Virus record (IMG/VR): IMGVR_UViG_2675903055_000001
Location: 26,476-90,475 of that record
From: a virus
Lineage: Duplodnaviria > Caudoviricetes
Length of the DNA: 64,000 bases
Reading direction: 5' to 3' (one strand)
In this document: positions 24,693-44,475 of the stretch, piece by piece
How positions within the stretch are numbered: position 1 is the stretch's first letter
How the letters are laid out: each line of letters opens with the position of its first letter
Notes under the pieces: generated by a model
Database searches by the model: none
What the model was told of the DNA's origin: nothing
What the model saw: the letters and a program-made list of their open reading frames with translations, nothing else
Program-made: the position numbers and the translations under genes

Positions 24693-24797
24693 GATCAGTT
24701 CTCCTTGTCACTGTGCGCGCGGGACAACAGGCCACCCACGAAGCCCCCGCCAACCTGCACGCTGGCCATGGCCCCGCAGCCGATGAGGAGGCGGGTC

Positions 24798-25352
24798 ATG
24801 GTCAGGTCAGCGCCGTCGCCGGGGAGGACGACTGCGGCGAGCAGCGGCCGGGCGACGGTGGGTAACGCCACCAAACGGCGGTACAGGCCGAAGCACTCGT
24901 CCTGTTATCACGTCGGCTACTCGCTCACGTGCCGCGAGTACGACGACCTCCTGCGCCTCAGCAGGGGACGGTGCAAGATCTGCAAGGAAGCCGCTTCGCA
25001 TCTGTGCATCGACCACGATCACAAGCTGGGAACATGGGCGGTTCGCGGCCTCATATGCAACGCCTGCAATCTGGCCCTCAAGAAAGTCGACGCTGGGTGC
25101 GGGGAGAAGAGCCCGGCAGTCGCGAGGTACCTCGCGAACGCTTGGCACAGAAGGCAAGCGAGTAGTGCAGTCAAGGCCGCTCGTGTCCGGCCAGTCTCCG
25201 AATGCCCTGTGTGCGGGAAGCGGTCGTCGGTGAAGCGTGACGGCCGCCTCTACGAGCACTGGTCCCGTCTCCCAGGGCAGTACGAAACGCGCTGCACTGG
25301 CGTCCCTGACGCCAGGCTCCCGCAGCGTCCCGAACCTACCGAAGGGGCATGA
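24798..25352 (+). CDS. Endonuclease VII-type (His-Me finger) nuclease
   Basis: YSLTCREYDDL..CKIC..LCIDHDH..VRGLICNACN; GAGGAGG RBS. Confidence 0.85.
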   Translation: MVRSAPSPGRTTAASSGRATVGNATKRRYRPKHSSCYHVGYSLTCREYDDLLRLSRGRCKICKEAASHLCIDHDHKLGTWAVRGLICNACNLALKKVDAGCGEKSPAVARYLANAWHRRQASSAVKAARVRPVSECPVCGKRSSVKRDGRLYEHWSRLPGQYETRCTGVPDARLPQRPEPTEGA

Positions 25353-26462: not shown

Positions 26463-27056
26463 TCAGTGCCAGCCGAGCCCGGTGTTGGAGAGCTGCGCGT
26501 TGCAGATGTTGTAGCCGCCGGAGGCGTGGGCCTTCTTCGTTTCGCCGTTGACGGTCACCGAGCAGTTGATGTCGCCGCCGCCTTGGAGTTGGGCGTTGAC
26601 GTGGTACCACAGGGCGTCGTCGTTGAACGGGAGTGTCTTCGTCATGGGCAGTCCGGAGCCTTGCCGACTGTCGGTGTCGGTGCCGTAGGTGATGTCGGCG
26701 CCGGCGGGGGCGCTGCCCCACACCTTGATGGTCACCGTCTTCGGCTTCGGCTTGGGCTCGGGCTTGGCGGCCGGCTTGGGCTTGGCGGAGGTCTCCTCGG
26801 CCTTCGGTGCTTCGTCGCCCGCGGGTTCGGCGTTCTCCTTCTCGGGCTTCGGCTTGGCGCTCGGCTCGGACGCGGTGTCCTTCTTGTCGGTGTCGCCGCC
26901 TCCGATGGCGGAGCCGATGCCGCCGAGGACGAGGACGCCGCCGATCACGCTGAGGACGATCAGGCCGGTGCGCTTCTTCTTGGGCGGCGGCTGGGGCTGC
27001 CACTGCTGCTGGAACGGGGGCTGCGGCTGGCCGGGGTACTGCTGGTGCGGGTTCAT
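26463..27056 (-). CDS. Membrane-anchored MmpS-like protein
   Basis: Pro/Gln N-terminus, one TM, K/P/E linker, ITYG...INCSVTVNG...ICNA. Confidence 0.8.
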   Translation of the reverse strand: MNPHQQYPGQPQPPFQQQWQPQPPPKKKRTGLIVLSVIGGVLVLGGIGSAIGGGDTDKKDTASEPSAKPKPEKENAEPAGDEAPKAEETSAKPKPAAKPEPKPKPKTVTIKVWGSAPAGADITYGTDTDSRQGSGLPMTKTLPFNDDALWYHVNAQLQGGGDINCSVTVNGETKKAHASGGYNICNAQLSNTGLGWH

Positions 27057-33262: not shown

Positions 33263-33799
33263 ATGAGCGCGTCAAGCGACTCCGCCGCCAAGCCCCGCCG
33301 TGCCGCTGTGTACCGCCTGTGGGACTCCGAGGGCAACCTCTTGTACATCGGCTCGGCCTACGACCCGGACCACCGTTGCCAGGCCCACAGGCAACAACCT
33401 TGGTGGCCGGCAGTCACACGCCGCACCGAAGAGTGGCACGCGGGGCGCCGCAACGCATACATCGCTGAGCTCGAAGCCATAGCGAAAGAACGTCCCACGC
33501 ACAACTTGATGGGCACGCTGGAGTACCAGACGCCCAGCACCGAAAAGGTTCAGCGCCGGAACGAGCTCGCACCTCTCCGAGGGCGTCTCACCCGAGAAGC
33601 TGACCTGCTGGCAGCGAGGGTGACTCGCGAGTCGCGAGCCGCGGGCGCCTCCAGTTACGAAGCAGAGCGGGCTGGCAAGCTGGCAGCGATCGACTTTCTG
33701 GAAGACACGGGCCTATTCGATGGAGCGGTCAAATGGCGGCGAAGGCAGGTGGCTTACGATGCGCGCCGCCACGAAGAGGAGCAGCGTGATGACAGCTGA
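33263..33799 (+). CDS. GIY-YIG nuclease family protein
   Basis: AVYRLWD..LLYIGSA..R..H..PWW..E..AI..P.HN. Confidence 0.85.
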   Translation: MSASSDSAAKPRRAAVYRLWDSEGNLLYIGSAYDPDHRCQAHRQQPWWPAVTRRTEEWHAGRRNAYIAELEAIAKERPTHNLMGTLEYQTPSTEKVQRRNELAPLRGRLTREADLLAARVTRESRAAGASSYEAERAGKLAAIDFLEDTGLFDGAVKWRRRQVAYDARRHEEEQRDDS

Positions 33800-35358: not shown

Positions 35359-35750
35359 GGCTGCTCCTGGTTGATGGTGCGGGCGACGGCGAGGGCGTGG
35401 GGGCCGCCACCGCCGCGGTGGCCCCACTCGGCGAGGGTGTACGCCTCTTGCTGGGCCGCGTGCTCCAGCCAGTCGGCGAGGGCGAGGCCGATGCCGGGGT
35501 GCATGGCGGCGATGTAGGCGGCGTCGGCCCACACGTTGCGGGTCTCGTCCCACGATTCCTGGCTCATCGTCGGCAACCAGGCGCGGAGTTCGGTGTCGTT
35601 GCGCTCGCCGGACAGGACGGTCGCGGTGTGCCCGTACTGGCCGAGGTGGGTGTCGTGCTGGCGCCACGGGCCGGGGGTGGCGGCGGTGGCGAGCGCCCGC
35701 AGGCGTGCGGCGGCGGTGCGGAGTTCGTCGGCGGGGCTGGGGTCGGTCAC
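35355..35750 (-). CDS. Ead/Ea22-like hypothetical protein
   Basis: AATPGPW...DAAYIAAMHP. Confidence 0.75.
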   Translation of the reverse strand: MTDPSPADELRTAAARLRALATAATPGPWRQHDTHLGQYGHTATVLSGERNDTELRAWLPTMSQESWDETRNVWADAAYIAAMHPGIGLALADWLEHAAQQEAYTLAEWGHRGGGGPHALAVARTINQEQP

Positions 35751-36727
35751 GGCTGCTCCTCGATGCCGTGGCAGTCGCATCCGCAGGGGACACCGGTGAA
35801 CTTGTTGTTGCGGCGACACCTGTCGTGGAGGTGGTCGGCCGCCGCCCGGAGTTCCTCGGCGTGTTCGGTGTGGACGTCGACTACGCGCTCGCACTCGCGG
35901 GCCGTCTCACATGCGGTGCTGGTGTACGGCGGCACGTCGATCAGGCGGAGCAGGTGGTCGGGGAGCTGCTCGCGGGTGCTGCCGGGCGGGGGCGGGGTGA
36001 AGTCGTCGGTCACGGTCAGCTTCTTGGCGGGCTGGATGACGATGTCTTTGCCGAGGAGGCGGAAGACCTCGCGGATGGTGTCCAGGCTGAGCCCGTTGAT
36101 CAGTTCGCCGATGGGCGTGGTGAGGTCGATGGGTACCCACGGGGCGGGTGGGGCTGCGTCGCGCCGCGTGCAGCGGCCGGCTCGGACGTGGCCGTCGGCG
36201 CACTCCTCGCCGCAGTGGGCGGCGGTTCGGGCGCACGGGGTCTGGCGGCAGGAGCAGTTGGCGCAGTGCTCGCAGAACGGCTGGTTCCGGTAGTTGTGGT
36301 AGACGATCTCTTCCGAGTCGCAGCCGACGCAGCGTTCGGCTAGCTGCCAGCGCGTGCCGTGGTCGTTGGCGTGGCTGCCGTAGTGGCCGGGGTGCAGCAC
36401 GCACTCCTCACGAATGGCGCCGAACGGGTCAGTGGGCGACAGATCGCCGCAGCGCTCGGGCGGTGGGTGCTGTTCGCGGGTGTGGCGTTTCAGTTCGGCG
36501 TGGCTGGTGGTGCGGAAGTCGGGGCAGTCCCAGCAGCCGTAGTTGACGGGTGTGGTCATGGTGGTCTCCGGGGTGGTGCGGAAGGTGTCGGGGGCGACAG
36601 TCGGTGTGAGGGTTTCGAGAGCCCGGTCGAGGCTGGCGAGCGTCTCGCGCTGCCGGGCGGGGTCGGTGAGTACTCGGCGGGCAAAGGCCCATCCGCAGCA
36701 GTCGGGGCTGGGGTTGGGGTTGGTCAT
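35747..36727 (-). CDS. Cys/His-rich mosaic multi-zinc-finger protein
   Basis: CWDC..H..H, C..HPGH..H, CVGC, CEHC, CGCDCH. Confidence 0.65.
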   Translation of the reverse strand: MTNPNPSPDCCGWAFARRVLTDPARQRETLASLDRALETLTPTVAPDTFRTTPETTMTTPVNYGCWDCPDFRTTSHAELKRHTREQHPPPERCGDLSPTDPFGAIREECVLHPGHYGSHANDHGTRWQLAERCVGCDSEEIVYHNYRNQPFCEHCANCSCRQTPCARTAAHCGEECADGHVRAGRCTRRDAAPPAPWVPIDLTTPIGELINGLSLDTIREVFRLLGKDIVIQPAKKLTVTDDFTPPPPGSTREQLPDHLLRLIDVPPYTSTACETARECERVVDVHTEHAEELRAAADHLHDRCRRNNKFTGVPCGCDCHGIEEQP

Positions 36728-36755
36728 CAGGTTCCCTTCAGCGTCGTGTGGGTTG

Positions 36756-36829
36756 TGCCCGAGGCCGGATTCGAACCGGCACTGAGCCGCTTTTAAGGCG
36801 GGCGCGTCTACCTGTTGCGCGACTCGGGC
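36756..36829 (-). tRNA. tRNA-Leu(UAA), bldA-type anticodon, short variable loop
   Basis: Acceptor GCCCGAG/CTCGGGC + A73; Leu-type D-loop (A14,A15,G18G19,U20,A20a,G21,A22); loop CTTAAAA (anticodon 36793-95); T-arm GCCGG-TTCGAAT-CCGGC; 74 nt, CCA not encoded. Confidence 0.85.
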
Positions 36830-36837
36830 GAAGGCGG

Positions 36838-37953
36838 TCAGGAGAAGAGGGCGAGTTGTTCGCGCTCGGCGCCCTGCGGAAGCACGACGGGGACCGGGTC
36901 CGCCTCCGCGCCCGGCCCGCTGCCGTCGTCGGCTGGGGTGTCGGTGCCGCCGTCCGTGCCGAGGTTGACGATGCGGGCCTGGGCAGGGCGCAGCCGCGCG
37001 TACTCGGCGCGGCTGACCTTCCCCGCGAGGAGACTGTCGCCGACGCTGATGCGAGGCATCGGCCGGTGCGGTATCGCGTCCAGGCGCAGCGGCCCGGGTA
37101 GGGCGCCGGCCTCGTGGAGTAGGTGGGCGAGGTAGACGGTGACGCGGAGTCGGCACACGGCCTCGGTGACCGGGTCGAGTTCCATGCCGTCGACGCCGGC
37201 GAGGATGCGGCGGGCCGCCGCGGCCGGGGGTATGGGTGTCCAGCCGGTGACGCCGTCCATGTGCATCTGCCGCGGGGCGAGTTGGCCGGTGGTGTACAGC
37301 TCCCAGAGCATGTCGATGGCGCGGATGAGGAAGTGGCCGGTTCCGCAGGTGGGGTCGATCAGGCGCAGCGTCTCGTTGCGGAACTCCGCGGCGGCGGGGA
37401 TGAGGGTGCGGTCGAGGATGCCGTCGGCGAGCCACCAGGGGGATTGGGCGAGGGCGTGGGCGAGGCGGCGTTCGTCGGTGACGAGTTGGAGGAGGTCGCC
37501 GAGGATCCAGCCGGTGATCGTGCCCGGCCCGCTCTCGACGGGGTAGGCGAGGGTGGGGGCGTCTTCGGCCCACCAGTGGAGTAGGCGGCTGCCGGCGGTC
37601 TCACTGGGTGAGGCGTGGCGGACGGGGTTGTCGTAGGCGGGGTCGAGGAGCGTCCAGGCGCAGGGGTGGACGGCGGTGTCGGCGACGGCGTAGGTGAGCC
37701 AGGCCAGGTCGGTGCCGCCCTGGGCGAGGAACTGCCGCCGTGCGGGCTGCGCGTCGGCGTTCAGGCGGCCGTCGATGAGGTGGTGGTCGGCTGCCCAGGC
37801 GTGGATGCAGGTCATGTACACCCAGCCGGCTGCGGTGCGGTGGGCGTCTTTGCCGGGGATGCTGTTGGCGAGCTGCTCGATCTGGCGCTGGAGTGCGCGG
37901 ATGAGGGGCCGGCTGGGTTCGGGGCGGGTCTGGGTGAGTGGGGTGCTGGTCAT
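36838..37953 (-). CDS. Truncated PglX/BREX-like adenine methyltransferase homologue (SAM-binding half only)
   Basis: LGDLLQ..ALAQSP..ILDRTL.PA..EF..LRLIDPTCGTGHF, GMELDP, VGDSLL; no NPPY/DPPY; ends EQLALFS. Confidence 0.8.
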   Translation of the reverse strand: MTSTPLTQTRPEPSRPLIRALQRQIEQLANSIPGKDAHRTAAGWVYMTCIHAWAADHHLIDGRLNADAQPARRQFLAQGGTDLAWLTYAVADTAVHPCAWTLLDPAYDNPVRHASPSETAGSRLLHWWAEDAPTLAYPVESGPGTITGWILGDLLQLVTDERRLAHALAQSPWWLADGILDRTLIPAAAEFRNETLRLIDPTCGTGHFLIRAIDMLWELYTTGQLAPRQMHMDGVTGWTPIPPAAAARRILAGVDGMELDPVTEAVCRLRVTVYLAHLLHEAGALPGPLRLDAIPHRPMPRISVGDSLLAGKVSRAEYARLRPAQARIVNLGTDGGTDTPADDGSGPGAEADPVPVVLPQGAEREQLALFS

Positions 37954-38399
37954 GCGGCGTGCTCCTGTCGCCCGGTGGTGATGTGGGCTGGGGTGATGAG
38001 GCCAGCGGCCATGGCGAGGGCGACGGCGTGGGTGGCGGTGCGCGCGCCGAGCCGGTGGTGGGCGGTGCGCAGAAGCCAGCGGACCGTGTCGAGGGAGGTG
38101 CCCATCTGGTCGGCGGCGTGCTGCGCGGTGTAGCCGAGGGCGGTCCAGAGCAGGGCTTCGAGCTGCCGGCCGGTCAGGGGGTTGTCGAGGGGGGCGTCGA
38201 GGAGTCCGGTGCGGGTGGCGAGGTAGACGGCGTGGGGCATGCTGACCGCGCCGAGTTTGCGCATGACGCGGGTGGCTACGTTCGCCACGCTCTTGGTGGT
38301 GAGGTTGATGTGGTGGCCGATCTCGCTGTAGGTGTCGCCGGCCGCGGTTCCGCGGAGGACTTCGAGTTCCGTGTCTGTGAGTCCCCGCGGCCCGGTCAC
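37950..38399 (-). CDS. Tandem LuxR-type HTH regulator
   Basis: LTDTELEVL..KLGAVSMPHAV and LTGRQLEAL..RLGARTATHAV. Confidence 0.85.
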   Translation of the reverse strand: MTGPRGLTDTELEVLRGTAAGDTYSEIGHHINLTTKSVANVATRVMRKLGAVSMPHAVYLATRTGLLDAPLDNPLTGRQLEALLWTALGYTAQHAADQMGTSLDTVRWLLRTAHHRLGARTATHAVALAMAAGLITPAHITTGRQEHAA

Positions 38400-38662
38400 G
38401 ATGCGGCTCCGTCGTCGCCGATGTCGCGCGGGTCGGTGATGAGGGACACGGCGACGCTGACGCGCATGCCACAGAGTGAGAGGAGGCTGTCGGCCCAAGA
38501 GAGGGTGAGGGTGGCCCGACCGGTGAGCATTTGGCTGAGGTGTTTGGTGGACAGATCGAGCCGCCGGGCGGCCTCGGCTTGGCTCAGACCGCTGATGATG
38601 AGGGCCGCACGTACCTGGGCGCGGAGATTGTTCTCTGCACTTGATGACGTTGGGGTCAGCAC
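38396..38662 (-). CDS. XRE-family HTH protein
   Basis: GLSQAEAARRLDLSTKHLSQMLTG. Confidence 0.85.
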   Translation of the reverse strand: MLTPTSSSAENNLRAQVRAALIISGLSQAEAARRLDLSTKHLSQMLTGRATLTLSWADSLLSLCGMRVSVAVSLITDPRDIGDDGAAS

Positions 38663-39609
38663 GGGGGCTCCTCGCTGCCGGGGCCGGGGCAGAGGAACGG
38701 GTACGGCGGGTTGGTGTCGTGGCAGGCGGGGCAGTCCTCGGCATTGCCGCCGCGGTGCTTGAGTGCGGTCGGCGCTGGCCCGGGGGTCGGCTCGTCGTCG
38801 TGTACGGCGCGGATGCGTGCGACAGCGTCGCGCATTCCGGCGAGCGCCACAGGGTTCTTGCCGTGCACGTCGCTGTCGATGGCGTCGCACTCGCCGAGGA
38901 TGGCGGCGAGCTGGTTCTCCAGTCGGACCTCCACCTCACGCGCCCGGTCACGCTCGCCGCGCAGGCGGGCGCTGTCCTTCTCGGCCGCCGAGATCGCCCC
39001 CCGAAGTGCTTCGTCCAGCCCCTCGTTCTCCTCCCGCAGGCGGGCTTCTCGGATGCGGGACTCGGACAGCAGCCGGTACACCGCGTGCTGCTCGGCGTCG
39101 GCCACGGGCGTCACGGCGTCGGCGATGCGCCCGTCCTCGCCTGCGTCGAGGGCGTAGAGGCCGCCGGTCTCGTGCAGGTGGCGGACTGCTGCGGCGTACC
39201 GGTCGCGGCGTTCGCTGCTGCCGGAGGTGACGCGGACTGCGCCGCCGCCGGGCTGCTGCGCGTCGGCCAGGTGCACGAGCACGGTCTCCGCAGCCGCTTG
39301 CGCACGCGCGGCGGGCACCTGCACACCGCAGCCGGCGAGAGCGGACAACACCACAGCACGGAGATAGGCGGGATGGGTGGGGGCCTCGCGGTCCTGTGCG
39401 CCCGCCGGCGGCACGCTCTCGGTGCGCTGCGCTTCGGCGGCCAGGCGACGGACCTGTTCCAGTGCCGCATCCACGCCGTTGCAGAAGTCGCAGCCGTCGC
39501 CCGGCCGGTAGGAGCAGTTGGCGGCGACCTGCCGCACCGCCCGCTCCACTTCGGCGAGCGCGGCGACTCGGTCGGTGAGCGTGGGGAGGGAAGTGTTGCC
39601 GTGATTCAT
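38656..39609 (-). CDS. Mosaic coiled-coil hypothetical protein
   Basis: RRDRYAAA, coiled coil, AEDCPAC..YPFLCPG. Confidence 0.7.
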   Translation of the reverse strand: MNHGNTSLPTLTDRVAALAEVERAVRQVAANCSYRPGDGCDFCNGVDAALEQVRRLAAEAQRTESVPPAGAQDREAPTHPAYLRAVVLSALAGCGVQVPAARAQAAAETVLVHLADAQQPGGGAVRVTSGSSERRDRYAAAVRHLHETGGLYALDAGEDGRIADAVTPVADAEQHAVYRLLSESRIREARLREENEGLDEALRGAISAAEKDSARLRGERDRAREVEVRLENQLAAILGECDAIDSDVHGKNPVALAGMRDAVARIRAVHDDEPTPGPAPTALKHRGGNAEDCPACHDTNPPYPFLCPGPGSEEPPC

Positions 39610-40229
39610 GACGCCACGCCCTGCCCGTCGGCTCGCGTCGCTCCGCTCACAGCCACCGCACAGTCCGCGCAGTACCGCGTCGCCTTGGCCGGCGTGCGCC
39701 ACAGAACGGCTGGCTTCTCCAGGCCGCATGCAGTCTTCCAGAACCCGGCCTTTGACGGAGCTGCACTGTGAATCGTGGCTTGCTTCACGACGCACAGGCG
39801 GTCGGGCCAGGGGTCGTGATCGATGACGATTCCGAGACGGCGACACACAGAAAGTGGATCTTCGTAGCCCTTGGTGAGCCGCTCGGGCAGGATCGTATTG
39901 CGTACTTCTTGAACGGTCTGGAAGATCCGCCCCTGTTTGATGTTGTTGCACACGTGGCAGGCCAGGACCCAGTTGTCCTGCGGGTTCCGCGCGATGTACG
40001 CGTAGGGCGCGAAATGATCCCAGTTGAGGCGGAGTGTGACGAAACTGTTTTCGCGCAGGATCTCGGCGCCGATGGGTATCTGGCAGTAGAGGCACCGGTT
40101 GCGGTGCTCGGCGATCAGCCGCGCACGTTCAGCGGTACGAGGGCGACGGCGGGAGTCGTTGCCACTGATCTGACTGCGCCCGTACACGGTTCTGCGCCAG
40201 TCATTTGCGGGGAGTTCAGGGGTGGTCAT
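39606..40229 (-). CDS. HNH endonuclease
   Basis: CLYC..WDHFAP..NWVLACHVCNNIK. Confidence 0.85.
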   Translation of the reverse strand: MTTPELPANDWRRTVYGRSQISGNDSRRRPRTAERARLIAEHRNRCLYCQIPIGAEILRENSFVTLRLNWDHFAPYAYIARNPQDNWVLACHVCNNIKQGRIFQTVQEVRNTILPERLTKGYEDPLSVCRRLGIVIDHDPWPDRLCVVKQATIHSAAPSKAGFWKTACGLEKPAVLWRTPAKATRYCADCAVAVSGATRADGQGVAS

Positions 40230-41838: not shown

Positions 41839-42050
41839 TAGGCGGCGTCCTGTTCGGGTATGGCGTGGAGGTGCCGGTGGCGGATGTGGGCGTGGTGTGC
41901 GTCGAGTGCGGCGAGGAGGTCGGCGCGGTGCTGGGCTTGTTCGGCTTCGGTCCACGCGCTGTGGTAGTCGGCGGGCTGGGGTGTGTGCGGCGGTGGTGTG
42001 GGGCGGATGGGTATCTCCTCGGCGAGGAGCCGGTCGTAGGCGGTGGTCAT
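41838..42050 (-). CDS. Hypothetical protein
   Basis: YDRLLAEEIP..WT..QHRADL. Confidence 0.65.
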   Translation of the reverse strand: MTTAYDRLLAEEIPIRPTPPPHTPQPADYHSAWTEAEQAQHRADLLAALDAHHAHIRHRHLHAIPEQDAA

Positions 42051-42439
42051 GTGGTCCACCGCCTGACTGGGATCCCGGCTTGTTCGGCGAGTCCGGCGGT
42101 GTGGCTGGCGCCGCGGCTGCCGTTGCGGATGAAGGCGAGGCAGAGGTCGGCGCCGAGGTAGACCATGTGGGCGTTGCGGATGAACCCGGCCCGGCGCCCG
42201 TTGATCCGCCAGTTGGCGGGGTGGTGTTCCTCGGTGACGCCGTTGACGAAGCCGTTGGCGGTGAGGCACCAGTCGCGGGCTTGGGCGTCGGCACCAGTGG
42301 GGCAGACGCCGTGGACGACGACGAGTGACCGGCCCGTGATGAGTGCTTCGTCGCGGGCGTTGTTGAGGGCAGCCCACACCACGTTGGAGGCGGGCCAGTC
42401 GCGGGAGCCGGTGACGAGGACGCGGTAGGGGCCGGTCAT
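42047..42439 (-). CDS. SLOG family (DUF2493/YspA-like) protein
   Basis: VLVTGSRDW, VVHG.CPTGAD, AGFIRNAHMV, SRGASHT. Confidence 0.85.
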   Translation of the reverse strand: MTGPYRVLVTGSRDWPASNVVWAALNNARDEALITGRSLVVVHGVCPTGADAQARDWCLTANGFVNGVTEEHHPANWRINGRRAGFIRNAHMVYLGADLCLAFIRNGSRGASHTAGLAEQAGIPVRRWTT

Positions 42440-42795
42440 TGGTCGCCCCCGTTGGCCAACTCCAGGAGCACGTCGGCGTGGCAGGGCTGGTCGAGCGGGC
42501 ACCAGCACATGAGGTTCCGGCCGGCCAGCTCGCGGCGTGCGCGGGCGATCAGGGTCGGTCGCTCGGCGATCCAGGCGCGGAACAGGAGGGCGGCTTCGGC
42601 GCGGGCGTCGCGCTCGTAGTCGAACGTGGCCCAGGTGCTGAGGCTGTCGATCGGGTCGGGGATGCCGTAGAGGCCGTCGGCCTGGCGGACTACTGCGTAG
42701 GGGTTGCCCCAGGCGGTGCCGCGTCCGACGTAGATGGCGCCTTCGGGTGCACGCCACCCGCGGGTGCGTTCGCGCTTGATGCGGGTGGGGCTCAT
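42436..42795 (-). CDS. DUF4326-like protein
   Basis: AIYVGRGTAWGNPY, ELAGRNLMCWCPLDQPCHADVL. Confidence 0.85.
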   Translation of the reverse strand: MSPTRIKRERTRGWRAPEGAIYVGRGTAWGNPYAVVRQADGLYGIPDPIDSLSTWATFDYERDARAEAALLFRAWIAERPTLIARARRELAGRNLMCWCPLDQPCHADVLLELANGGDQ

Positions 42796-43097
42796 GCGGT
42801 GACCTCGGCTTCCTGTACGCGCTGCGGGTGGGGTTCGGGGATCGCTCGGCCGCCGACCCGGCAGGGGGTGCCGGGCGCCACCTGGCAGGCGGGGCAGACG
42901 GCGGTGGCGATGACCCACGCGGTGATGCGGGCGGGGTGGACGGGCGCGTCGGTGATGCGGCGCCGTCCGCTGCGGGTGGTGCAGGGTGCGCGGTCGTGGG
43001 CGCCGCAGTGGGGGCAGGTGACGGCGAGGGCGGGGTGCTGTCCGGTGCGGGAGATGGCGCGGATGTCGTCGGGCATGGGGACGCTGTAGCGACTCAC
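42792..43097 (-). CDS. Double zinc-finger protein
   Basis: CPHC..C..H and CPAC..C..H. Confidence 0.7.
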   Translation of the reverse strand: MSRYSVPMPDDIRAISRTGQHPALAVTCPHCGAHDRAPCTTRSGRRRITDAPVHPARITAWVIATAVCPACQVAPGTPCRVGGRAIPEPHPQRVQEAEVTA

Positions 43098-43966
43098 GCT
43101 GCACGCTCCAGTCGGTCTTCGACCGGTAGGTCGAGGAGGGAGAGCTGCCGGGGGGCGGTCATGCCCTTCTCGATGGCGGCGAGGACGCCTTCGCGCCAGG
43201 CGAGGGCGTAGCGCAGGCAGTTCGCTTCGTTCTTGTGCGGGCCGCGGGAACGCGGAAGCCGGAAGTCGCAGCCGTCGCCGGGGGTGTGTCGGCCCTGGGC
43301 GGACCAGGCCATCGAGTCGGCTGTGCCGAGCAGGTGCGCGACGCGCCGGAGCCCCTCCGTCTTGAAGCCGAAGCCGTGCGCCCGGCCCGGGCCGACGATG
43401 CCCGCGACGGTGTGGATGACCTCCGCGGCGAGCGGGGTGTCCTGAATGCGGCACACGCTCCCGACACCCACCAGCGGCTCGCGAGTGAGGTCGACGCCGG
43501 CCCGCTCGTAGAGGGTGGCGCACTGCTCGTAGGCGGCCGGCCGGTCACCCTGCAGCACGGGGATGATCCGCACCGGGCAGTTCAGCGCGCGGAGCTCGCA
43601 AAAGTTCGCCACGGTCCGCCGCTGGTGCTCGGCCACGCTCAGGCGGGTGCCGGGGGCGTGCTTGCCGCCGGGCATGGGGCCGCCGTTGATGATGACGTCC
43701 TCGCACATCCAGTCCTGCGGCGCGGCCCACTCCAAGCGGCCGATGTGCTCCGCGTACCGGCGGATCTGTTCCACGTACTGGCGGGGGCTGGGTCCGCTGC
43801 CCCAGGTGCCGTGTTCGGACAGTTGAGTGAATCCGCCGGAGTCCAGCGCCCACGGGCCGCGGGCTTCGGGTAGGCGCCGTATGCCGCGCAGAGTTGTGTC
43901 GGAGACGAACAGCGGCACGTCGGTGTGTGCCATGAAGTGCGGCTTGGCGCCGAGGTAGAACTTCAT
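43094..43966 (-). CDS. dpdA: DpdA-like 7-deazaguanine DNA transglycosylase (TGT fold)
   Basis: ALDSGGF, AAPQDWMCE, IPVLQG, VGVGSVC, HGFG, ADSMAWS; C-terminal RQLSLL. Confidence 0.8.
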   Translation of the reverse strand: MKFYLGAKPHFMAHTDVPLFVSDTTLRGIRRLPEARGPWALDSGGFTQLSEHGTWGSGPSPRQYVEQIRRYAEHIGRLEWAAPQDWMCEDVIINGGPMPGGKHAPGTRLSVAEHQRRTVANFCELRALNCPVRIIPVLQGDRPAAYEQCATLYERAGVDLTREPLVGVGSVCRIQDTPLAAEVIHTVAGIVGPGRAHGFGFKTEGLRRVAHLLGTADSMAWSAQGRHTPGDGCDFRLPRSRGPHKNEANCLRYALAWREGVLAAIEKGMTAPRQLSLLDLPVEDRLERAA

Positions 43967-44475
43967 GCGGTCGCCTCCGGCCTGCGGGCGCGCCAGGCGA
44001 AGATCACCGTGATGGCGGCGGCCGTCATCCAGGCTTTGCCGACGAGTTGGCCGGGCAGGAACGCGAGGGACCCGAAGGCGAGCCACAGGAACACCACGCT
44101 GTCGGCGAGGAGACCGACCGCGTTGGAGGCGGCCATCGCGACCAGCAGGCCGCGTCGGCGGAGTGGTTCGTATACGGCGTAGTCGAGCGTCTCGGACAGG
44201 GCGAACGCCGCGGTGGAGGCGATGGCCAACTCTGGGGTGGCCAGCAGCCACGACAGCACCGCTCCTGTGGCGATCGCGGCGAGGATGGCGGCGCGTCCGG
44301 CGGCTTCCCGCGCGAGGTCACGGAGGACGAGGGCGAGGCCGACCATGTACACGCCGGCGGGTGCGGCATAGCCGAAGCCGACTGGCACGGCACCGACGTG
44401 AGTGACGAGCATGTTCGCGGCCGGGATGGTGGCGACGTAGGCGGTGAGGGCAACTGACGCGCGAACGGAGATCAT
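43963..44475 (-). CDS. yhhQ: VUT family (YhhQ-like) 7-deazaguanine precursor transporter
   Basis: AN, LRDL, AS..AF..SETLD..VY, SN..G...DS.VF..LAFG, GQ..GK. Confidence 0.85.
   Translation of the reverse strand: MISVRASVALTAYVATIPAANMLVTHVGAVPVGFGYAAPAGVYMVGLALVLRDLAREAAGRAAILAAIATGAVLSWLLATPELAIASTAAFALSETLDYAVYEPLRRRGLLVAMAASNAVGLLADSVVFLWLAFGSLAFLPGQLVGKAWMTAAAITVIFAWRARRPEATA

Follow-up and report, generated by a model that had tools for sequence, protein, structure and literature searches.

A prophage-borne, non-catalytic descendant of the BREX type 2 methyltransferase PglX with a clamp-motif-like tail

The 64,000-nucleotide stretch analysed here (the window; positions 26,476 to 90,475 of the Caudoviricetes record IMGVR_UViG_2675903055_000001) encodes a 371-residue protein, named half-PglX, which is a non-catalytic descendant of PglX, the methyltransferase of the type 2 bacteriophage exclusion (BREX-2) or phage growth limitation (Pgl) system, without its target-recognition domain (TRD). 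The truncation of half-PglX is a conserved, selected state, and members of its family occur in temperate actinophages as well as in integrative or conjugative elements. Nearly half of the family ends in a peptide resembling the motif that binds the replicative sliding clamp. Tentatively, we favour a role as a competitive antagonist that would act in a dominant-negative way on PglX-dependent defence and be concentrated on element DNA while it replicates.

Briefly, the ATG start codon of the gene overlaps the stop codon of the upstream gene (ATGA), and this start is correct because the first residues align with the N-termini of homologues. The gene and the regions of its protein are listed below in window positions.

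36838–37953, minus strand: half-PglX gene (P0001), open reading frame (ORF) with translation, 371 amino acids, stop codon included.
37384–37953, minus strand: N-terminal domain, residues 1–190, helical and of the PglX/HsdM type, ending in motif X (AQSPWWLAD..ILDRT).
36949–37383, minus strand: residues 191–335, the S-adenosylmethionine (SAM)-binding half of a Rossmann fold (strands 1–3), with a family-specific closing helix and an IVNLG element and without motif IV.
37330–37359, minus strand: motif I, IDPTCGTGHF, residues 199–208, from translation and homologue alignment.
37171–37188, minus strand: motif II, GMELDP, residues 256–261, from translation and homologue alignment.
37027–37041, minus strand: motif III, GDSLL, residues 305–309, from translation and homologue alignment.
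36841–36948, minus strand: linker, residues 336–371, disordered, sequence-variable and acidic/proline-rich (predicted local distance difference test score, pLDDT, 38–54).
36844–36858, minus strand: QLALF, residues 366–370, a clamp-binding-motif-like peptide one residue from the C-terminus.

A first-pass annotation, made from the sequence alone, had given the protein 371 residues, the motifs IDPTCGTGHF, GMELDP and GDSLL and the ending EQLALFS (residues 365–371), and all of these are found in the translation. The same annotation had proposed a similarity to PglX, and this similarity proved real. The NCBIfam model BREX_2_MTaseX (NF033451) matches residues 38–316 with an E value of 1e-28 over profile positions 57–323 of 1185, and the PADLOC PglX model PDLC02529 matches with an E value of 1e-30, the two together covering residues 35–316. 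For the equivalog model NF033451, of about 1185 positions, the curated cut-off is 400 bits, and half-PglX stays under it at 99.5 bits (98.2 in the search of its own genome). Models of BREX-1, -5 and -6 match around motif I only (BREX-1 PglX, E value 2.6e-6). Profiles, block-by-block alignment and structure comparison all show that the N-terminal domain and the SAM-binding motifs X, I, II and III are homologous to those of BREX-2 PglX, at about 30% identity to the full-length protein over roughly 270 residues. The alignment with full-length PglX also shows a conserved 18-residue insertion, specific to the family, following motif I. Among PLSDB plasmids, the matches are full-length BREX-2 PglX and a single 90-residue remnant only, and the nearest hits are annotated as BREX-2 PglX.

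The remainder of PglX is missing. In tblastn with eight full-length PglX proteins against the window, only their residues ~63–333 match, at 37003–37839, and the sequence past residue 333 is without a match both in the window and in the surrounding genome of 7.18 Mb. The whole NF033451 profile likewise finds nothing in this genome besides profile positions 56–323. Neither NPPY nor DPPY occurs in the translated protein, and outside it tblastn finds no PglX NPPY region in either the window or the genome. The protein stops at residue 371 and does not extend to the TRD or the C-terminal domains of PglX. These results confirm that NPPY/DPPY and a TRD are absent, as the first-pass annotation had stated, and support its description of a truncated, non-catalytic relative of BREX-2 PglX. 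Its further point, that a tRNA gene and not a frameshifted continuation lies downstream, also holds, with a tRNA-Leu called by ARAGORN and no PglX remainder in the genome. A split gene was considered and rejected: neither the window nor the genome contains a C-terminal piece of PglX, and NPPY and a TRD are missing from all conserved neighbours. Half-PglX can therefore neither methylate DNA nor recognise a site on it, since motif IV (NPPY), strands 4–7, the TRD and the C-terminal domains are lost.

The predicted fold agrees with this division. An AlphaFold2 model built on 80 homologues has a pLDDT of 90 and a predicted template-modelling score of 0.87 and is confident over residues 1–335. Its N-terminal domain is all-helical with pLDDT above 90, followed by only three main Rossmann strands (1–3), which are shut by the family-specific helix, and by the disordered residues 336–371. 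VIA-align places E. coli BrxX (9ewz_C, chain residues 1–460, Z 12.7), MmeI (Z 12.6) and Salmonella PglX (8q56, Z 12.5) among the top matches that span the whole model. The seven-stranded fold and motifs IV–VIII of an active gamma-class N6-adenine methyltransferase are not present. In the SAM-binding lobe, D200, P201, G204, T205, G206 and D306 are among the 22 alignment columns invariant in the 80 family sequences, and E258 is nearly invariant; of these residues, D200, G204, G206, D306 and E258 are the SAM contacts.

The truncated form recurs as a family of constant length. A search of 5.8 billion proteins returned more than 120 protein clusters, mostly of 340–390 residues and at 43–88% identity, from Streptomyces, Actinomadura, Streptosporangium, Sphaerisporangium and soil metagenomes. 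In an exhaustive search of 1.84 billion representative proteins, the family scores 297–484 bits and is followed by a drop to 153 bits or less, where canonical PglX of about 1200 residues begins. Hits of 300–700 residues in the representative library are mostly frameshifted or contig-cut full-length PglX and not further short families. The ESM Atlas cluster of half-PglX comprises 92 members from Actinomycetota under the name "hypothetical protein". Three close family pairs give ratios of nonsynonymous to synonymous substitution (dN/dS) of 0.28, 0.31 and 0.38; distant pairs are unusable, since their synonymous sites are saturated at ~90% GC in third codon positions and yield apparent ratios of 0.6–1.0.

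These data bear on the view that half-PglX is what remains of a captured pglX decaying as a pseudogene, with a tail motif arisen by chance. Two thirds of PglX are indeed gone, and one relative (G126, locus L024) is broken and lies among chromosomal genes. Against decay stand the conserved length in more than 120 clusters that form one clade, the dN/dS of about 0.3, the confident model, the many invariant columns and family-specific conserved insertions, and a tail motif enriched about 200-fold. Decay has next to no probability on these grounds and is excluded by the data. The first-pass annotation had proposed to look for same-length homologues under purifying selection and had named variable breakpoints with dN/dS near 1 as the sign of decay; the former were found and the latter were not.

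An unrooted tree of the region shared with PglX places the short proteins without NPPY in one group (Shimodaira–Hasegawa-like approximate likelihood ratio test, SH-aLRT, 96). Their sister group (SH-aLRT 99), made up of L023, P0126 and the broken L024, retains NPPY and ends one helix later. TRD-less methyltransferases of ~440 residues with a complete core come next, and full-length PglX is set apart from all short and TRD-less groups (SH-aLRT 99). This pattern is consistent with a stepwise reduction of PglX on mobile elements. The clamp-like tail and the truncation appear to be older than the loss of NPPY, because the sister group L023/P0126 has NPPY, is cut just after it and has the same tail. 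The genes of the sister group are L023:6007–7158 (G010), L024:6446–7180 (G126) and P0126, with the tails QLDLF, QLGLF and QLSLF; the G126 copy is split and surrounded by chromosomal genes (an epimerase and an amino-acid permease), which suggests a decayed prophage. The TRD-less PglX-like methyltransferases of 440–460 residues (L018:5626–7002; L025:4929–6017; L026:4452–5777, minus strand; L027:4929–6248; L028:4458–5768, minus strand) combine this N-terminal domain with a full catalytic core (NPPY, TANSFMKREFG, IDTSGAYIPGHGTPT) and have no TRD. L025–L027 have a conserved 334-residue upstream gene in common. On the viral contigs L018 and L017, the PglX-like proteins end in QLALF and QPPLF.

Past residue 335 the linker cannot be aligned between family members, save for the motif at its end. 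Q..LF lies within the last 40 residues of 55 of the 121 family members (45%) and in only 17 of 7578 coding-like ORFs of the host genome, so the motif is conserved among homologues beyond chance. The strict form QLxLF occurs in 32 of the 121, most commonly as QLDLF, and adding the variants QLxLL, QLxLW and QLTF brings the share with a clamp-like tail to about 57%. Within the last 15 residues, QLxLF is found in a single one of the 7578 ORFs, which is half-PglX itself. The motif is missing from all 64 full-length PglX proteins compared, which end in basic RGRK-type tails. The family consensus, [GE]-Q-L-[DAS]-L-F-[GPD], resembles the GQFDLFGD found at the expected internal position of the host replicase subunit Pol III alpha (DnaE1, 1231 bits to TIGR00594). 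The QLALF of half-PglX fits the clamp-binding consensus and lies in a disordered tail (pLDDT below 50). Clamp-binding motifs have the form Q-aliphatic-x-[LM]-[FL] and often sit in disordered C-terminal tails, and QLxLF, QLDLF in particular, is the tightest binder (PMC11139829). From this likeness we infer that the family tail binds the clamp. The clamp-binding-like motif of the first-pass annotation has thus become a conserved family feature, with a resemblance to host DnaE1 and a contextual link to phage dnaN genes (see below).

Most members with an alternative tail, PGAAFPLxDFxWP, fall in one nested clade, and the clamp-like motif was therefore lost secondarily there. This clade comprises P0084, P0098, P0104, P0108 and relatives, together with L005 and L031. 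Its tail replaces both IVNLG and QLxLF and occurs in conjugative-element-like contexts (L005, L031 and the P0098 contig).

The window belongs to a prophage of the siphovirus type, whose host genome is actinobacterial, high in GC and assembled in 34 contigs. Large terminase, portal, major head protein and tape measure genes lie at 1–12 kb, and an early/middle operon runs on the minus strand from about 60 kb to 14 kb. Half-PglX lies inside this operon, which also encodes RecE-like and DnaQ-like exonucleases, a replication initiator and an IstB-like loader. The nearest annotated features and the distribution of the tail over the related loci are as follows.

37950–38399, minus strand: upstream gene of 149 amino acids with two LuxR/sigma-region-4 helix-turn-helix (HTH) units, matching phrog_3282 "sigma factor" (E value 2.5e-23).
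36755–36829, minus strand: tRNA-Leu(UAA) called by ARAGORN, 8 nucleotides past the half-PglX stop codon, given as context and not a protein.
Phage-like loci (window, L003, L004, L006, L009–L016): Q..LF tail in 10 of 12.
Conjugative-element-like loci (L005, L031, L032, P0098 contig): Q..LF tail in 0 of 4.

The flanking genes at 35747–36727 (minus strand; 326 residues, cysteine-rich) and 38656–39609 (minus strand; 317 residues) have no Pfam or PHROG match. The tRNA-Leu(UAA) is of the bldA type, and the TTA codon occurs once in the 18,742 codons of predicted window genes (in 24695–24874). Inside the early operon, a GIY-YIG-type endonuclease gene at 33263–33799 (plus, the opposite strand) and an HNH endonuclease gene at 39606–40187 (minus strand) are probably homing-type insertions.

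At the phage-like loci, the family gene neighbours those for DnaB, an AAA_25 helicase, SSB, RecT, RusA, RNase_T/DnaQ and WhiB. Three of the eight IMG/VR contigs that carry the family encode a DnaN of their own, which shares 49–53% identity with the DnaN of the bacterial host, encoded at L007:1492–2622 on the minus strand. On the upstream side, dnaN is one to two genes away from the family gene in L009 and L013, and 3.5 kb away in L014.

L009:4437–5525: phage DnaN.
L013:3916–5055: phage DnaN.
L014:1361–2509: phage DnaN.

The conjugative-element-like loci hold an FtsK/TraB-type translocase, NlpC/P60 and M23 peptidases and integrases.

This setting gives some weight to a second explanation, in which half-PglX has nothing to do with BREX and serves, parked on the sliding clamp, as an accessory of the replisome or a factor for host takeover. 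It might influence replication of the host or the phage, or link replication to phage transcription by way of the neighbouring LuxR/sigma-region-4 HTH protein, with the PglX-derived body reused as a SAM-sensing or scaffold domain. The family gene does lie in replication modules and adjoins phage dnaN, and this phage, which encodes neither a polymerase nor a clamp, must use the host replisome. The HTH gene and the half-PglX gene overlap by 4 nucleotides and are likely to be translationally coupled; the same stop/start overlap is found in L003, whose HTH orthologue matches the GerE Pfam family, and L023 and L024 also have an upstream HTH gene of this type. Clamp-coupled transcription has precedents in T4 gp33/gp55 acting with gp45 and in a proposal for MuC of phage Mu. 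A preprint reports that late transcription of Mu uses the clamp (10.1101/2025.01.04.631326). On the other side, no such HTH neighbour is found outside these four loci, for instance in L004, L005 or L006, and a strong clamp blocker would hurt a phage that depends on the host clamp. Members on conjugative-element-like DNA keep the body without the motif, which argues that the body has a clamp-independent role. This explanation also leaves the specific retention of the N-terminal domain of a defence protein unexplained, and we consider it unlikely, though not negligibly so.

A C-terminal motif of the clamp type ends 11 of the 349 predicted genes of 16 related loci: nine family members, one TRD-less PglX-like methyltransferase (L018) and one DpdA (L012). 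The L012 dpdA gene (L012:7616–8425) lies directly downstream of the family gene, and the end of its product, ..QPALDLFAGVG, nearly copies the tail of this neighbour. In the window, a DpdA-like DNA transglycosylase gene at 43094–43966 (minus strand; phrog_1279, E value 5e-69) encodes QLSLL 12 residues from the protein end. It belongs to a block at 42047–44475 (minus strand), with genes for SLOG/YAcAr (PF10686), DUF4326, the DpdA-like protein and a YhhQ/Vut_1 precursor transporter (PF02592), which probably serves 7-deazaguanine DNA modification and is located 4–6 kb from the half-PglX gene. A replication-coupled 7-deazaguanine modification by DpdA through the clamp is possible. The pattern of tails fits a hub-binding peptide that these phages put on proteins acting on new DNA. 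Apart from BREX, DpdA, a further DNA-protecting factor, also seems to be tethered to the clamp by similar C-terminal peptides in this phage and in L012, and a clamp-tethered DpdA would be a new way to organise phage counter-defence.

The antagonist role is favoured because it uses all the observations. The parts of the protein under selection are the PglX N-terminal domain and the SAM lobe and, in phages, also the tether. Half-PglX would act through the PglX N-terminal domain, which it retains and which is argued to contact other BREX components and not to serve for dimerisation (PMC12839542), together with the likewise retained SAM-binding lobe bearing motifs X, I, II and III. The QLxLF tail of the phage members copies the beta-clamp motif of the host replicase and would thereby tether the protein to sliding clamps. 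There, where new, unmethylated phage DNA arises, half-PglX may take the partners or the place of host PglX. We infer binding to BREX-2 partners, SAM binding and any effect on defence from the relationship to PglX. A more specific version, in which a defence-gene-derived, replisome-tethered inhibitor, namely a PglX front hung on the clamp, keeps BREX-2/Pgl from assembling or acting on newly replicated phage DNA, seems to us doubtful.

The taxonomic range accords with a BREX-2 target. Full-length BREX-2-type PglX of about 1200 residues occurs in roughly 70 of 401 Streptomycetaceae species genomes (family profile, E value about 1e-41), and BREX-2 has been reported from 1309 taxa, of which 1039 are actinomycetes (PMC12839542). 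The half-PglX gene itself lies in a prophage and not in a pglW/X/Y/Z locus.

Several observations weigh against the antagonist role. The genome profile search finds neither full-length PglX nor a PglZ above cut-off in the lysogen, which thus has no BREX system and offers half-PglX no target, and the case for a decoy function draws only on ancestry, neighbourhood and a common taxonomic range. The family is present in only 3 of the 401 Streptomycetaceae species genomes, in none of 400 genomes sampled across the class besides the window's own, and in none of 50,697 cultured phage records (megablast and tblastn); these carriers are too few for co-occurrence with BREX-2 to be assessed. Clamp tethering cannot be essential to the core function, as only 45% of the family has Q..LF (about 57% with QLxLL-type variants). 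The role also takes as an assumption that the half Rossmann fold still binds SAM. In favour of the role, the family gene at the P0098 locus lies two genes from an ArdA match and four from an ArdC-N match, but the former Pfam match is faint and the latter weak, and both come from one locus.

The conserved SAM contacts admit two further explanations. In one, half-PglX is a regulatory or recruiting subunit that would pair with an active methyltransferase (host PglX or a phage enzyme) and bring this enzyme to the clamp, so that nascent element DNA is methylated and read as self. Catalytically dead methyltransferase paralogues such as DNMT3L and METTL14 are known. The conserved SAM-lobe residues would suit such a subunit, as would the TRD-less relatives with a complete catalytic core in viral contigs, one of them with a QLALF tail (L018), and the similar peptide at the end of the DNA-modifying DpdA (window and L012). 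The N-terminal domain of PglX is homologous to the HsdM dimerisation domain, which points the same way, while BrxX is reported to act as a monomer, which does not (PMC12839542). The related loci have no conserved methyltransferase neighbour and the genome has no PglX remainder, and we regard this pairing as quite improbable.

In the other, half-PglX is a general anti-restriction or SAM-sequestering protein directed at Type I/IIG methyltransferase-based systems and not specific to BREX-2. Its fold also matches HsdM, MmeI and DrdV, its SAM-binding motifs are conserved, and the T3 SAM lyase sets a precedent in that lowering SAM defeats BREX (10.1101/2023.02.27.530186). However, the sequence similarity of the N-terminal domain is specific to BREX-2 PglX, and a non-enzymatic 1:1 binder cannot meaningfully lower cellular SAM. 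A protein that binds SAM stoichiometrically is accordingly unlikely to be the "SAM sink" of the first-pass annotation, its conserved SAM contacts notwithstanding, and we give this general function only a slim chance.

If the replisome-tethered version of the antagonist role is correct, half-PglX would be the first anti-BREX protein made from a BREX component, and it would place the decisive step of BREX-2 at the replication fork and offer a handle on the BREX mechanism. The few described inhibitors, Ocr, the SAM lyase and OrbA, are the main means of dissecting how BREX/Pgl halts phage replication. The half-PglX family is a directly testable probe of which BREX-2 component is bound, of whether defence acts at forks and of whether SAM-bound PglX is the recognised state. 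We know of no inhibitor of the actinomycete type 2 BREX, and our literature search turned up no account of a truncated PglX from phages, of an inhibitor derived from BREX or of a counter-defence protein with a clamp motif.

Among known systems, half-PglX is closest to PglX (BrxX) of BREX type 2/Pgl (NF033451), with which it shares the N-terminal helical domain, motifs X, I, II and III and the actinomycete range; type 1 relatives of PglX have been solved (8C45, 8Q56, 9EWZ). In contrast to PglX, it has one third of the length, lacks NPPY, strands 4–7, the TRD, the C-terminal domains and the basic C-terminal tail, and has gained the conserved 18-residue insertion after motif I and a new acidic QLxLF tail. 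It is found in prophages and integrative elements and not beside pglW, pglY and pglZ. The TRD-less PglX-like methyltransferases of 440–460 residues (L018, L025–L028) belong to the sister side of the family (SH-aLRT 99) and have the same N-terminal domain, likewise without a TRD, with L018 ending in QLALF. Unlike half-PglX, these proteins have an intact catalytic core with motifs IV to VIII, and a clamp-like tail is missing from most of them.

Proteins with a clamp motif include Pol III alpha, Pol IV and Hda and, on mobile elements, RK2 TrfA, Tn7 TnsE and transposases of insertion sequences. Half-PglX shares with them the Q-aliphatic-x-L-F peptide in a disordered terminal tail, nearly that of host DnaE1, but its cargo is a dead methyltransferase fragment. 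The known anti-BREX proteins are T7 Ocr (a DNA mimic that binds BrxX), the T3 SAM lyase and vibriophage OrbA (which binds BrxC). Half-PglX is likewise phage-borne and has the same defence superfamily as its putative target, but is related to none of the three in sequence or fold. To our knowledge, none of them derives from a BREX component or carries a clamp motif, and we know of no counterpart to a replisome tether on a defence-derived inhibitor. Some virus-encoded versions of defence components work as inhibitors, among them the anti-CRISPRs derived from viral cas genes. Although it relates to a different defence system, half-PglX resembles these in being the homologue of a defence protein, carried by a mobile element, whose catalytic parts are gone and whose interface parts remain.

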